Positions 16,413-41,837 of a stretch of 64,000 nt of DNA are shown here, in pieces (position 1 is the first letter of the stretch; every line of letters begins with the position of its first letter). A program made the translations under genes and the position numbers. The stretch comes from Candidatus Jorgensenbacteria bacterium (lineage in GTDB: Bacteria > Patescibacteriota > Minisyncoccia > UBA6257 > GWB1-50-10), in the NCBI GenBank assembly GCA_030648515.1, contig JAUSHK010000005.1:48383-112382 (forward strand). The letters run 5' to 3'. Under the pieces are notes generated by a model. It did no database searches. It saw only the letters and a program-made list of their open reading frames with translations, and was not told the origin of the DNA.

Positions 16413-16443
16413 AGATTGAATATGTTATGTATGAAATTAATTG

Positions 16444-16514
16444 CTGCGGGACAGGGATTCGAACCCCGATACCGTGCTCCAGAGGCACGAGTCCTACCAT
16501 TAGACGATCCCGCA
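16444..16514 (-). tRNA. tRNA-Gln (anticodon CTG)
   Basis: Hand-folded cloverleaf. Acceptor stem U1-A72 is typical of bacterial tRNA-Gln (TGCGGGA/TCCCGCA). D loop AATGGTA, anticodon loop CTCTGGA, T loop TTCGAAT, discriminator G. No encoded CCA. Confidence 0.75.
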
Positions 16515-16760
16515 ATGATTCTCAATCTGCCTTATTATCGTTTCTTTTTCAATGCGACAATCCTTGACCTTATGTTCATATTCCCTTGCCTCCTTCTCCA
16601 ATTCAAATTTTCTCGTAAAAACTAGCTCAAAAGGTTTATAAGGTTTTGTCGATTTAACTCTACCACTATTATGCTCACAAAGTCTTTCGTCCAATCTATT
16701 GGTACTTCCTGTGTAATACCATTCTCTTTGTTTACTTTTTATAATATAAACATACCACAT
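16500..16760 (-). CDS. GIY-YIG nuclease family protein (UPF0213/YhbQ-like), overlapping the 5' end of tRNA-Gln
   Basis: YVYIIKS...YTGSTNRLDERLCEHN matches the GIY-(x10)-YTG core. Start taken at Met26 of track ORF 16500..16835, because the upstream codons are read through the duplicated tRNA fragment. The stop TAA is tRNA positions 13-15. Confidence 0.6.
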   Translation of the reverse strand: MWYVYIIKSKQREWYYTGSTNRLDERLCEHNSGRVKSTKPYKPFELVFTRKFELEKEAREYEHKVKDCRIEKETIIRQIENHCGIV

Positions 16761-16766
16761 GTTACA

Positions 16767-16808
16767 GACTACCATTAGACCTGCCTGCGCAGGCAGGCGA
16801 TCCCGCAA
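16767..16808 (-). repeat. Partial duplicate of tRNA-Gln positions 1-21, interrupted by an 18-nt perfect palindrome (CCTGCCTGCGCAGGCAGG)
   Basis: 16798-16808 equals tRNA nt 1-10 (plus 1 nt upstream). 16769-16779 equals tRNA nt 11-21. The 18-nt palindrome 16780-16797 lies between them. Confidence 0.7.
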
Positions 16809-16901
16809 CATATAGAAATTAAACAGCAAAAACACTTAAAAATCAATAAAAACAGCCCTTAGCATGAAAGCGCTAAGGGCTATGTGATACGAGATATAAA
16901 A

Positions 16902-17588
16902 CTATACTGCCTGAGAAACCGGCTCTTCTTCCAAAAGTGCCAAAAGATCTTTCGCTTCGGCTATTTTGCTTTTTATATCTATTTCCGGGAATTTCTCCCT
17001 CGCCCATTCGGTGGCGAATTTTAAGTTGCCAAGGAACAAGTCTTGCATTTTTAGAATTTCGCACGGAGTCTTTCCCCATTCGGCGGCGAGACCTAAAACC
17101 ACTTGTTGTAACCACACAGGATCAAGCACTTGGCTCAAATCCGCGTCACGGATAATTTTGAGCGTTAGGCCCAACTGATCGGATGGAGTTTGGTAGGGAA
17201 ATTCAGTGGCCATGATAATCTCTATGATTTTAGGAAGCTCCTCAATATCTTCGTCCATAATATGCTCTTTTAGCGCTACGATTGCCCTCTCTATATTCAC
17301 TGAATCCGGGCCCGATTTACCCGTGTGATTAAAATCGTGGAACATTGCCGCAATAAAAATATTTCGGACTTCTCTCTTTGATAATGTCCCGTAGAAAATA
17401 CACGCTTGATAGCATAACCACAAAACGTGAAGCATGTGCCTCCCGTTGTGATATGGATTAAGAAGATTCCGTGCGTCGTAAAAAATTGCTCGGAAATAAG
17501 GTCTTAAGTCGCCCTCGAAGAGAAGTGCATCGTTTCTGATTATTCCAGCAATTCCTCCGCGAACTTTTGATTCTTGTTCCATATACAA
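16902..17588 (-). CDS. HD-domain metal-dependent phosphohydrolase
   Basis: H...HD signature (YHNGRHMLHV ... FHDFNH ... RDADL). 228 aa. Confidence 0.7.
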   Translation of the reverse strand: MYMEQESKVRGGIAGIIRNDALLFEGDLRPYFRAIFYDARNLLNPYHNGRHMLHVLWLCYQACIFYGTLSKREVRNIFIAAMFHDFNHTGKSGPDSVNIERAIVALKEHIMDEDIEELPKIIEIIMATEFPYQTPSDQLGLTLKIIRDADLSQVLDPVWLQQVVLGLAAEWGKTPCEILKMQDLFLGNLKFATEWAREKFPEIDIKSKIAEAKDLLALLEEEPVSQAV

Positions 17589-19200: not shown

Positions 19201-20196
19201 TCAAGCCCGCTCAATACCCGAATAGAGGAATGATTTTATGGCTTTTTCAGCCTCGGCGCCGGTTTTTGCTACCATGCACGCCGTGCGAAGCTCTTTTGCG
19301 CCGTCAAAACCGGAGATGTATGCCTTGAGATGCTTTTTCATAACATCAAAGTTTTTCTTCTTGTGAAAAATCTTTTCAAATAGTTTTGCGTGCTCAATTG
19401 CGACTCGGAGTTTTTCTTGGACCGTAGGCGGATTTTTTCTGCGCGCGTAAAAAAACCACGGGTTTCCGAAAATTCCCCTGCCGATCATCACGCCATCTGC
19501 GCCGGTCTCCTTTGCGCGCGCTTTTGCTTCAGTGAGGTTTTTTACGTCCCCATTTCCGATAATGAGCGTGCGGTTAGGCGACGAATCGTATTTATGCGCG
19601 ATTTTTACGGCTTCCTTTATCACACTCCAATCAGCCGGAACATCGGACATCCCTTTTCGCGTACGGGCATGGATGGTAATTGCAGACGGTTCGGCTTCCA
19701 ACAGATACGGAAGCCATTTTTTAATCTCGTTTTTCGCGTCACCTATCCTTGTCTTTACGGACACAGGAATCCGCCGGCCGGCGGATTCCGCGCCTCTTTT
19801 TGTTTCTTTTATAATTTCCCGCGCAAGCTTCGGGTTTTCGATAAGCGCCGCGCCAGCGCCTTGTTTTAGTATTTTCCGGTCCGGACAGCCCATATTGATG
19901 TCTATTCCGTCAAAGCCAAGCTTTTGGAGTATGCGCGCGGACTTATAAAAATGTTCAGGCGTTGCGCCAAAAAGCTGGGCCACAATCGGCCGTTCTTTTT
20001 TTGTATATGACAAATCAAGTTCAAATGCTTTTCTCCCCTTCGAACACAGTCCGTCAGCTGGGACAAATTCCGTCCATAAAATGTCCGGTTTGCCATATTT
20101 TGTGACAATTCTTCGAAACGCGGCGTCGGTCACATCAGACATCGGCGCAAGCGCAAAAAACGGCCTTTTTAGCTTTTTCCAGAAACCTTGGACCAT
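19201..20196 (-). CDS. dusB: tRNA-dihydrouridine synthase (DusB-like)
   Basis: Dus TIM-barrel motifs: FALAPMSDVTDAAFR, NMGCP (catalytic Cys), IGNGDV. Confidence 0.8.
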   Translation of the reverse strand: MVQGFWKKLKRPFFALAPMSDVTDAAFRRIVTKYGKPDILWTEFVPADGLCSKGRKAFELDLSYTKKERPIVAQLFGATPEHFYKSARILQKLGFDGIDINMGCPDRKILKQGAGAALIENPKLAREIIKETKRGAESAGRRIPVSVKTRIGDAKNEIKKWLPYLLEAEPSAITIHARTRKGMSDVPADWSVIKEAVKIAHKYDSSPNRTLIIGNGDVKNLTEAKARAKETGADGVMIGRGIFGNPWFFYARRKNPPTVQEKLRVAIEHAKLFEKIFHKKKNFDVMKKHLKAYISGFDGAKELRTACMVAKTGAEAEKAIKSFLYSGIERA

Positions 20197-41609: not shown

Positions 41610-41686
41610 TGGTGGACCCGGGGAGATTTGGACTCCCGACCTCCTCATTGCAAATGAGGCGCTCTACCAGGCTAAGCTACGGGCCC
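41610..41686 (-). tRNA. tRNA-Ala (anticodon TGC), CCA encoded
   Basis: Hand-folded: acceptor GGGCCCG/CGGGTCC with the G3-U70 wobble that is the alanine identity element. 9-nt D loop. Anticodon stem CCTCA/TGAGG with loop TTTGCAA. T stem GGGAG/CTCCC; T loop TCCAAAT has C at position 55. Confidence 0.6.
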
Positions 41687-41765
41687 TAACACCAATTGAG
41701 GATAAATTAAAATTCCCTTTCTGTGAAGACCTCGATTGGTGTGGGAACAGGCCCTCTTTTATATG

Positions 41766-41837
41766 TGGGTGTGGAAGGAATCGAACCTTCGACTTCTGTC
41801 TTATCAGGACAGCGTTCTACCACTGAACTACACACCC
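41766..41837 (-). tRNA. tRNA-Ile (anticodon GAT)
   Basis: Hand-folded canonical cloverleaf: GGGTGTG/CACACCC acceptor, D loop AGTGGTA, anticodon loop CTGATAA, T loop TTCGATT, discriminator A. No encoded CCA. Confidence 0.75.

Follow-up and report, generated by a model that had tools for sequence, protein, structure and literature searches.

A mini GIY-YIG nuclease gene between a tRNA-Gln gene and a palindrome-split partial copy of that tRNA: a probable tRNA-specific mobile cassette in Patescibacteria

Why does a tRNA-Gln gene carry the gene of a very small nuclease directly at its 5′ end, and why is the nuclease gene preceded in turn by a second copy of the beginning of that tRNA, split by a perfect palindrome? 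This arrangement occurs in a 64,000-nt stretch of DNA from a Candidatus Jorgensenbacteria bacterium (assembly GCA_030648515.1, contig JAUSHK010000005.1, positions 48,383 to 112,382), referred to here as the window. An earlier note, made from the letters of the sequence, had read the locus as a small mobile or homing cassette that targets the D-arm region of tRNA-Gln and leaves the tRNA intact. We think it probable, at roughly 60%, that the cassette is a selfish, tRNA-specific, free-standing GIY-YIG element, one that likely relies on the tRNA promoter for its expression and on recombination between homologous tRNA sequences for its spread. The notion of a small mobile tRNA-Gln cassette found comparative support: recurrence in unrelated neighborhoods, decay forms, presence or absence among close relatives, turnover at a syntenic locus, and a 404-nt tract that is identical in diverged strains. 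Of the homing claim, the specificity for tRNA-Gln stood; recognition of the D-arm by a homing endonuclease is doubtful, since the protein proved to be a bare catalytic domain.

The cassette measures about 300 bp, and its elements follow one another on the minus strand as a promoter-like region, a partial tRNA copy (nt 1–21; hereafter the orphan), the nuclease open reading frame (ORF), and the intact tRNA. The tRNA-Gln(CTG) gene runs from 16514 to 16444 (ARAGORN reports 16443–16514; Rfam RF00005 scores it at 57.4 bits against a gathering score of 29), and both methods find it uninterrupted, in agreement with the earlier description. The ORF of 86 aa, listed at 16500–16760, begins with an ATG at 16760 and ends with a TAA at 16502–16500; as had been observed, this stop codon is nt 13–15 of the tRNA, and tRNA nt 1–15 overlap the 3′ end of the ORF. 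The 8-nt spacer between the ATG and the orphan was likewise found where it had been placed (16761–16768, minus strand). The 3′ segment of the orphan, TCTAATGGTAG (tRNA nt 11–21; 16769–16779, minus strand), belongs to a 12-nt exact direct repeat with 16494–16505, and its 5′ segment, T+TGCGGGATCG (tRNA nt -1 to 10; 16798–16808, minus strand), to a direct repeat with 16505–16515. Between the two lies a perfect 18-bp palindrome, CCTGCCTGCGCAGGCAGG (16780–16797, strandless), which we call P1. Apart from the strand, which is the minus one, two details of the original description needed adjustment. The second tRNA copy is present, but it is one base longer than the nt 1–21 first reported: T16808 is also the base preceding the tRNA, so that the direct repeat spans 22 nt (-1 to 21), and P1 divides it into 11+11 nt. 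The palindrome does stand at the boundary of nt 10 and 11, but the sequence fits two adjacent split points, since the last base of the palindrome and tRNA nt 10 are both G.

P1 is unique in the window: no further match was found in the 64 kb, even with three mismatches, and none in 100 shuffles. Since P1 is unmatched in the shuffles and the arrangement recurs in dozens of independent contigs, a chance origin is excluded. An intron of the tRNA, either group I or archaeal-type, was considered and rejected: the functional tRNA is uninterrupted, and the palindrome is confined to redundant copies. The group I tRNA introns of Patescibacteria (PMC13011429) are a different phenomenon.

What kind of protein does the ORF encode? 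Its assignment to the GIY-YIG type held up in a profile search: Pfam PF01541 matches it at 60 bits, where the cut-off is 22.6, with E=2.9e-16 over profile positions 1–70 of 78. Across homologues that are 41–66% identical, the residues Y3, Y5, Y16, G18, R26, E29, H30, N31, and E62 are invariant, and we take these to be the catalytic positions of I-TevI (the GIY/YIG tyrosines, the Arg, the His/Asn, and the metal-binding Glu). In a phmmer search of the PDB, the sole solved relatives by sequence were 1ZG2 (BH0048; E=2.6e-9) and 1YWL (EF2693; E=8.7e-5). The AlphaFold model (pLDDT 85.6) has a three-strand sheet and helices in an alpha/beta GIY-YIG fold. Foldseek placed the UPF0213 structure 1ZG2 first (E=1e-4), followed by the nuclease domain of Slx1 (TM 0.66, root-mean-square deviation 1.8 Å, 70 columns) and, further on, the I-TevI catalytic domain and the UvrC N-domain. 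With a single domain in the range of 80–110 aa and similarity to BH0048 and EF2693, the protein falls within UPF0213/COG2827. The wider family is very large, comprising 3444 cluster representatives at 50% identity (E<=1e-3); the window protein falls within the tRNA-Gln-specific clade of a large group of UPF0213/Slx1-like mini-nucleases that is linked to tRNAs. Searches of NCBIfam, PHROGs, and PADLOC with the 86-aa protein gave no match.

Neither Pfam nor the AlphaFold model contains a recognizable DNA-binding domain beside the catalytic one, that is, nothing that would correspond to the long recognition site of a homing endonuclease; residues 69–83 form a single basic helix in the model. Sequence-specific homing is doubtful because the protein amounts to the catalytic domain alone. 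The fold neighbor Slx1 and the constant hairpins described below suggest instead that the putative enzyme may be structure-specific rather than sequence-specific.

Does the arrangement occur elsewhere, and is the tRNA a regular part of it? Two samples of loci (designated by L numbers) bear on this. In the first, a protein-pattern scan covering one genome per species yielded 445 relatives, and 86 loci were examined: the best 80, five contigs fetched earlier, and the window. A tRNA lies within 500 nt of the ORF in 69 of these 86 loci; with two exceptions, these tRNAs share the strand of the ORF. Twenty-three ORFs adjoin the 5′ end of the tRNA (gap -50 to +15). Loci with the ORF at the tRNA 5′ end (class A) involve tRNAs for Gln, Val, Ile, Tyr, Pro, Gly, and Ser and come mostly from Patescibacteria. 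In class B (40 loci from Bacteroidota, Ignavibacteria, Balneolaceae, Peribacteria, and others), the ORF lies 18–246 nt downstream of the tRNA, mostly a tRNA-Ser; 3′ of the ORF follow a hairpin motif and 13–18 nt that repeat the tRNA 3′ end with its trailer. Tandem arrays are seen at some of these loci. Class B loci in the series L039–L110 (e.g., L053 2351–2900, L067 2399–2900, L050, and L056) have a tRNA-Ser or tRNA-Glu and an ORF bracketed by the inverse motifs ACTACGCTnAAGCTTCGT and ACGAAGCTTTAGCGTAGT; the hairpin arms of L067 are the arms of P1 (CCTGCCTGA...TCAGGCAGG).

The second sample came from a metagenome scan with P1 plus TCTA, which gave at least 120 loci. The four bases were added because the bare 18-mer lacks specificity. 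As a marker in its own right the 18-mer was rejected: its 25 matches in viral contigs were mostly GC-rich phage DNA or terminators, and none stood in a tRNA context. Among the P1-plus-TCTA matches listed, about three quarters are in tRNA contexts, and the standard form consists of an orphan with P1, an ORF of ~80 aa, and a tRNA-Gln 280–310 nt further on. Some matches are full-length tRNA-Gln copies with P1 that adjoin an intact copy and an ORF, and the matches also include ORF-less orphans of other tRNAs. Neither of the outcomes that the earlier note had named as refuting its reading came about: the palindrome has further copies, in other Patescibacteria loci, tRNA-Gln genes free of the cassette occur, and the ORF does match a GIY-YIG profile.

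The window architecture itself (nt 1–10, P1, nt 11–2x, ORF, intact tRNA-Gln) was seen in 10 of the first 12 Gln loci, and with an identical P1 it occurs in at least 48 distinct loci of other Patescibacteria, with CTG as well as TTG isoacceptors and with unrelated flanks. The two closest proteins (64–67% identity) are encoded on short contigs with the window layout; in one of these, L002, the same 18-mer interrupts the tRNA copy at the same position, and in the other, L001, a second, slightly different 18-mer is nested inside P1. Cassettes at tRNA-Leu combine an orphan of the form GCCGAGGTGGCGAAATGGTAGA–P1–CGCGCACG with an ORF of another subfamily and an intact tRNA-Leu. The tRNA-Leu orphans of L111 (11280–11400) and L229 (7120–7220) carry, besides P1, a second, longer GC-rich insertion in the acceptor/D region, and in both loci a 5′-truncated tRNA-Leu copy bearing P1 follows the intact tRNA-Leu.

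Direct repeats of a tRNA end that flank an insert, one of them within an intact tRNA, give the classic picture of attL and attR. One could therefore read the locus as the remnant of an integrase island that once attached at tRNA-Gln and left the GIY-YIG gene behind as cargo. We regard this as most improbable. At every locus the repeats enclose only ~275 nt, with the same insert content everywhere; no recombinase is found within the repeats, which hold just the 86-aa ORF, or among the neighboring ORFs of the window; and the duplicated end is the 5′ end, whereas integrase-type sites, as far as is known, use the tRNA 3′ end. The likeness to tRNA-integrative elements lies in an insert that is bounded by a tRNA-end direct repeat and preserves a functional tRNA. 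The cassette differs from them in its size of ~300 bp and its lack of an integrase, in its duplication of the 5′ tRNA end (in the Gln, Leu, Val, Ile, and Tyr classes), and in a non-functional repeat that is interrupted or partly replaced by a hairpin.

How faithful is each protein to its tRNA? Clustering of 152 distinct ORFs placed the window protein in clade 10 (about 70 members; motif WYYVGSTNRL...RIEKE.IIR.IE), which is always found at tRNA-Gln, with CTG and TTG genes interleaved; every clade 10 locus with enough flank has a P1-bearing tRNA-Gln copy upstream or downstream. Other clades are associated with Leu (with P1), with Val/Ile (with their own hairpin), with Tyr/Ser/Arg, with Pro/Gly, and with the Ser of class B; the YhbQ-like clade 13 has no tRNA linkage. 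The DNA upstream of class A ORFs contains a partial 5′ tRNA copy that carries a GC-rich hairpin, and the hairpin sequence does not vary within a type. In the Gln type, P1 stands between nt 10 and 11 of the orphan; in the Val/Ile type, GGTCGCCTNAGGCGAC replaces its anticodon arm; in the Tyr type, either CCCCGCCAYGGCGGGG occupies the D-loop or CCCGCTATAAGCGGG replaces the anticodon arm; and in a Gln locus of Elusimicrobia the D-loop holds yet another hairpin. Within 150 nt of the ORFs, the density of perfect GC-rich hairpins (28 in 24 kb) exceeds that elsewhere in the loci (33 in 319 kb) about 11-fold. In the Val/Ile cassettes L077 (2810–2880) and L089 (2800–2880), a second tRNA-like fragment follows the intact tRNA, with the same hairpin in place of the anticodon arm; in L089 the 3′ acceptor strand of this fragment, CCGACCC, is complementary to the 5′ strand of the upstream orphan, GGGTCGG. 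The two fragments, upstream orphan and second copy, look like the halves of a single hairpin-bearing tRNA-like gene with the ORF and the tRNA between them.

Does the cassette come and go? tRNA-Gln genes free of it occur in comparable contigs. At least 14 loci have an orphan and a tRNA without an ORF, with the intact tRNA 31–100 nt after P1; L036 is a pseudogene (36 codons), and L149 has a truncated ORF. L032, another metagenome-assembled genome (MAG) of Jorgensenbacteria, and L155 are 95.8% identical over 2 kb of flank and have identical tRNAs and identical orphans with P1, and L155 has 14 nt in place of the 251-nt ORF of L032: these close relatives differ in having the gene, while their flanks are conserved. 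A further pair, L181 and L211, has identical tRNAs and ORFs that are 71% identical.

The neighbor genes of the window were unmatched in the other loci fetched; three more loci (L231–L233) were reached separately, through the neighbor gene. L231, the closest by this gene (neighbor protein 90% identical), is rearranged after the terminator and provides no clean empty site, and L233 has other genes at the corresponding position. L232 (neighbor protein 70% identical) is syntenic: the terminator is the same, and both the promoter-like region, at the same spacing, and the tRNA-Gln(CTG) are nearly identical to those of the window. Its positions 1338–1816 hold two stacked orphans, one with a hairpin of 41 nt at nt 10/11, the other with one of 38 nt in its D-loop, and the ORF that follows them encodes an 84-aa GIY-YIG protein of a different clade than that of the window.

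The comparison of L113 with L120 bears on exchange between strains. The two differ at 34 of 647 positions upstream (5.3%) and then at none of the next 404 nt, a tract that takes in 44 promoter-proximal nt, the orphan with P1, the complete ORF, and tRNA nt 1–46. Past this tract, the differences in the T-stem are compensatory pairs, and the DNA further downstream is not related. In a third locus, L171, the upstream flank of L120 is joined to the tRNA of L113. By our own estimate, the probability of finding no differences in 404 nt at a divergence of 5.3% is ~7e-10. Because such a tract is identical in diverged strains, it indicates a probable recent transfer or conversion of the cassette, with an apparent breakpoint inside the tRNA and co-conversion of flanking markers.

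How closely does the orphan follow its tRNA? In 48 distinct Gln loci with 17 tRNA variants, nt 1–10 of the orphan equal nt 1–10 of the local tRNA in 83% (40/48), compared to 12% of cross-locus pairs; for nt 11–20 the corresponding values are 67% and 34%. None of 20000 permutations reached the observed match for either segment. The 3′ segment has eight “decay” variants that are absent from real tRNAs, the 5′ segment hardly any. Orphans foreign to the local tRNA occur in L223 (Gln) and in L030, L075, and L089 (Val/Ile), and the 3′ extent of the orphan ranges from 15 nt to full length. Two accounts fit the better preservation of nt 1–10. The DNA to the left of the palindrome may be recipient-derived and refreshed with each transfer, under selection for compatibility with the acceptor stem; alternatively, it may be constrained by RNA pairing with the 3′ strand of the tRNA. 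In the minimum-free-energy (MFE) fold of the whole transcript, the 5′ strand of the orphan does pair with the 3′ acceptor strand of the tRNA (z=-3.4), and P1 is predicted to form an RNA hairpin of -11 kcal/mol. The folds fit a stable P1 hairpin and the orphan–acceptor pairing without discriminating between models. One resident tRNA can be rebuilt from outer fragments (nt 1–10 of the upstream orphan plus the downstream P1-bearing copy) at L178, where the result is uninformative, but not at L223.

These regularities bear on another explanation, namely that the ORF is a vertically inherited, tRNA-linked housekeeping or regulatory nuclease whose leader is a functional RNA (a decoy, a processing signal, or a stabilizer) matched to the downstream tRNA. 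The far-above-chance agreement of orphan nt 1–10 with the local tRNA and their slower decay relative to nt 11–20 would follow from it, as would the predicted pairing with the acceptor strand, the strict orientation and adjacency to one tRNA identity per clade, the perfect preservation of P1 across deep lineages, and the frequent position of the ORF stop inside the tRNA. We nevertheless judge a host function unlikely. The distribution is patchy, with empty tRNA-Gln genes; ORFs decay, and ORF-less alleles exist in near-identical backgrounds; a different clade sits at the syntenic locus L232, and tandem arrays occur; orphans vary in extent, and some are foreign to their tRNA; and the cassette tract is identical in strains that are otherwise diverged.

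Is the palindrome part of the insertion? The earlier note had counted it as part of the insertion footprint. It does stand at the same tRNA position in relatives, but it is not private to the insertion. P1, a GC-rich 18 bp within AT-rich genomes, occurs in the cassettes of both tRNA-Gln and tRNA-Leu and in fragments of other tRNAs; tRNA-Gln pseudo-copies have it at various positions, and protein genes contain it in frame. Extra copies lie in nearby tRNA pseudo-copies in the D-stem, the anticodon loop, and the T-loop; in some full-length tRNA-Gln copies with P1, the anticodon loop bears another P1 or the T-loop a variant palindrome. Sites outside tRNAs are often within long ORFs and always read in the frame (D/I)LPAQAG. 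The genes that hold P1 in frame encode TsaD, RecG, a ThrRS-like protein, MiaA, Tmk, an S1-like protein, and TopA, and the in-frame positions are L209 2204, L122 5156, L117 1126, L147 1455, L169 4333, L157 486, L185 7819, and L145 3360. In TsaD of L122 and L209, proteins that are 64% identical, P1 is unchanged at the same position. Because it is also found in Leu cassettes, in other tRNA fragments, and in protein genes, P1 is an independent, recurrent GC-rich mini-insertion.

Related palindromes were seen as well. A variant 18/19-mer, P2 (CCTGCATGCGCAGGCATG(G)), is identical in the unrelated loci L001 (367–402), where it is nested within P1, and L178 (1128–1146), where it lies in the T-loop of a tRNA-Gln pseudo-copy. 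Its sequence rather than its structure seems to be conserved, since its two changes from P1 break base pairs without compensation. In the window, a perfect 24-bp palindrome, GGAATCCGCCGGCCGGCGGATTCC (19766–19789), is in frame (..ESAGRRIP..) in a 331-aa tRNA-dihydrouridine-synthase-like ORF (19201–20196, minus strand) and may be another in-frame mini-insertion of this kind. L175 and L226 appear to differ in the presence of P1 inside the downstream tRNA; assembly chimerism is possible there, and this pair was not used as evidence.

Short GC-rich palindromes of a comparable sort are the Rickettsia palindromic elements (RPEs), the GC clusters of yeast mitochondria, and the 18-nt PstI palindromes that flank tRNA genes in Neurospora mitochondria. 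P1 resembles these in being tRNA-associated and recurring in identical form, and it resembles the RPEs in lying in frame in housekeeping genes. Unlike the RPEs, it is much shorter, occurs in Patescibacteria, and is tightly linked to a specific nuclease gene family.

Such a linkage raises the question of whether nuclease and palindrome are partners, much as in the system of repetitive extragenic palindromes (REPs) and their associated tyrosine transposases (RAYTs). The Slx1-like enzyme would then act on, disperse, or maintain its cognate hairpins, and the tRNA duplications would be collateral products of breaks near the gene; the autonomous unit would be an ORF plus the hairpin beside it, with lone palindromes in tRNA copies or protein genes as its non-autonomous counterparts. 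The resemblance to REP/RAYT pairs is that a nuclease gene is flanked by its own short palindrome, with one repeat type per clade. The hairpin enrichment beside the ORFs, the P1-bearing copy at every clade 10 locus with sufficient flank, the accumulation of extra P1 copies in tRNA pseudo-copies, the perfect P1 at orthologous TsaD positions while the flanks diverge, and the recurrence of an identical P2 in two loci all agree with a partnership, as does the presence among the closest folds of Slx1, a cutter of branched and stem-loop DNA. Nonetheless, a partnership on these terms strikes us as rather unlikely. P1 is rare (one copy in the 64-kb window, and few copies away from tRNA-Gln in the ~1 Mb of fetched loci), whereas REPs are highly repeated and have no tRNA specificity; P1 is common to the tRNA-Gln and tRNA-Leu clades, whose proteins are clearly different; and RAYTs are HUH/Y1 enzymes, whereas GIY-YIG enzymes hydrolyze DNA and have no known strand-transfer chemistry.

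A broader version would make the mini GIY-YIG protein and its clade-specific palindromes a two-part mobile system, in which the enzyme would cut structured DNA both at tRNA genes and at palindromes, and the ensuing repair would duplicate tRNA segments, shift the ORF from one tRNA gene to another, and copy P1 to new places, including in frame as LPAQAG in essential proteins across Patescibacteria. We consider this a minor possibility. If true, it would supply the widespread UPF0213 family with a function and make the palindromes a new counterpart, in bacteria, of RPEs and the GC clusters of mitochondria, here with the enzyme identified. Both the nuclease and the palindrome lend themselves to direct tests with a small recombinant protein and synthetic DNA. 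In any case, P1 is an 18-bp palindrome that has been perfectly conserved over deep lineages and inserted both in tRNA fragments and in frame in Patescibacteria housekeeping genes.

How might the cassette be expressed? The transcription unit of the cassette is bounded upstream by the intrinsic terminator of the preceding HD/PDEase-like gene (16852–16883, minus strand; terminator scan), which is conserved in both L231 and L232. Within that limit, a promoter-like TTGATT-N17-TTTAAT (16818–16846, minus strand) ends 10 nt before orphan nt 1. It may be the original tRNA promoter, which would now drive the orphan, the ORF, and the tRNA. Expression of the ORF as the leader of the tRNA transcript is proposed because the ORF is placed between this element and the tRNA, is strictly co-oriented, and has no promoter of its own. 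The 3′ segment of the orphan extends in relatives to GGTAGGA(C), which is a possible Shine-Dalgarno-like element. In the window and several relatives, the ORF stop lies inside the tRNA (nt 13–15 in Gln; U8-A9-G10 in Val/Ile); therefore, the full ORF would be readable only from the unprocessed precursor. Co-transcription from a displaced promoter, with release of the tRNA by RNase P, is a plausible scheme for this layout.

The favored reading, a selfish tRNA-specific element, can be put together as follows. The tRNA promoter would transcribe the orphan (as a 5′ untranslated region, UTR), the ORF, and the tRNA as a single RNA, from which RNase P would free the tRNA; the host would keep a working tRNA, and the ORF would borrow a strong promoter. 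Spread between genomes would occur by break-stimulated or ordinary homologous recombination, with portable homology arms supplied on the right by the conserved tRNA and on the left by the orphan or the upstream flank. Recombination with such arms would explain the fidelity of protein clades to one tRNA and the breakpoints inside the tRNA. After invasion, the ORF would decay and be lost, leaving solo orphans, and new cassettes would re-invade and stack further orphans. The association of clades with tRNAs fits tRNA-homology recombination followed by degeneration of the kind seen for homing genes, and so do the jumps between the genes of the two isoacceptors (CTG and TTG), the stacking of orphans, the series of decay forms, and the identical tract. 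P1 would be a separate mini-insertion that occupies the dispensable tRNA copy. It may stabilize the cassette against repeat-mediated deletion, by splitting the 22-nt repeat so that deletion becomes rare or its product lethal; it may mark or destroy a cleavage site; it may offer the Slx1-like nuclease a structured recognition site; or it may stabilize the 5′ UTR.

Several observations weigh against this reading. The proposed comparison of empty with occupied sites turned up tRNA-Gln genes without the cassette, but no clean pre-insertion empty site in a close relative: L155 retains the orphan and P1, and L231 is rearranged. The nuclease activity and its target are putative, and sequence-specific homing is, as noted above, doubtful. 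Furthermore, the occupied allele has an intact tRNA, and a nuclease that recognized the tRNA sequence alone would cut the allele of its own host. The agreement of nt 1–10 with the tRNA and the perfect conservation of P1 could instead result from a leader function such as pairing with the tRNA 3′ strand. A strict-consensus promoter scan calls no promoter, and the element at 16818–16846 is one that we infer. Finally, metagenomic contigs can be chimeric at repeats; this affects L175 and L226 and possibly L113, L120, and L171.

Which characterized system comes closest? The nearest precedent is SegB of phage T4. This GIY-YIG homing endonuclease is encoded among tRNA genes, recognizes the conserved TpsiC motif, cuts tRNA genes, and drives the inheritance of itself and of flanking tRNA DNA (PMC2330249). 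Like SegB, the cassette ORF is free-standing, tRNA-linked, and present or absent among relatives, with flanking tRNA sequence co-transferred. SegB, however, has 221 aa and a 27-bp recognition sequence, is phage-borne, and involves no tRNA duplication, whereas the cassette ORF encodes a bare catalytic domain of 80–90 aa in bacterial chromosomes, is always co-oriented with and adjoining one specific tRNA, and is flanked by a partial duplicate of that tRNA with a GC-rich hairpin. The UPF0213/COG2827 (YhbQ-like) proteins and Slx1 share the size and the catalytic motif, and 1ZG2 and 1YWL are the closest solved structures by sequence. The differences are that the YhbQ-like clade of our sample lacks the tRNA linkage and that Slx1 is eukaryotic and acts with Slx4 on branched DNA. 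To our knowledge, bacterial UPF0213 proteins are of unknown function, and no tRNA linkage has been described for them.

Searches of the literature outside of subscription journals yielded no account of cassettes that link a UPF0213-type gene to a tRNA, of an orphan combined with a hairpin, or of the 18-mer. For a free-standing homing-type gene at tRNAs, the unusual features are the minimal size, the duplication of a tRNA end, the clade-specific hairpins, the occurrence in several phyla, and a linked palindrome that inserts in frame in proteins. If the favored reading is confirmed, tRNA-gene parasitism would provide a biological context for the very large, uncharacterized UPF0213/COG2827 family of mini-nucleases. 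The cassette would also be among the simplest conceivable target-specific mobile elements: ~300 bp and one catalytic domain, with a specificity that would come from borrowed tRNA homology.

The surroundings of the cassette in the window consist of Obg, a 136-aa ORF without a Pfam match, and the HD/PDEase-like protein. The last of these, the upstream neighbor (16902–17588, minus strand), has 228 aa and scores 22.3 bits as PDEase_I-like, below the Pfam threshold of 24.8; its homologues at E<=1e-20 number at least 180 and come mostly from Patescibacteria, and those with a name have no specific functional one. In an Rfam search of the whole window at the gathering threshold, only tRNAs were matched. 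Among these, tRNA-Ile(GAT) and tRNA-Ala(TGC) are adjacent at 41610–41837 in the style of a ribosomal RNA (rRNA) operon spacer, with no rRNA found in the 64 kb by the same search.

The cassette has also left a trace in sequence databases. For the deposited protein P0001, the gene caller placed the start at the ATG of 16809–16811 (A at 16811), so that translation runs across the orphan and P1 (MLRDRLPAQAGLMVVCN...) and the protein has 103 aa instead of 86. The P1 18-mer is stop-free in every frame. We rejected the N-terminal extension as coding sequence: the same DNA in L002 is in another frame relative to the MWYVY start. Many family entries in protein databases have similar spurious N-terminal extensions of 20–45 aa, and the cassette accounts for such artefacts.

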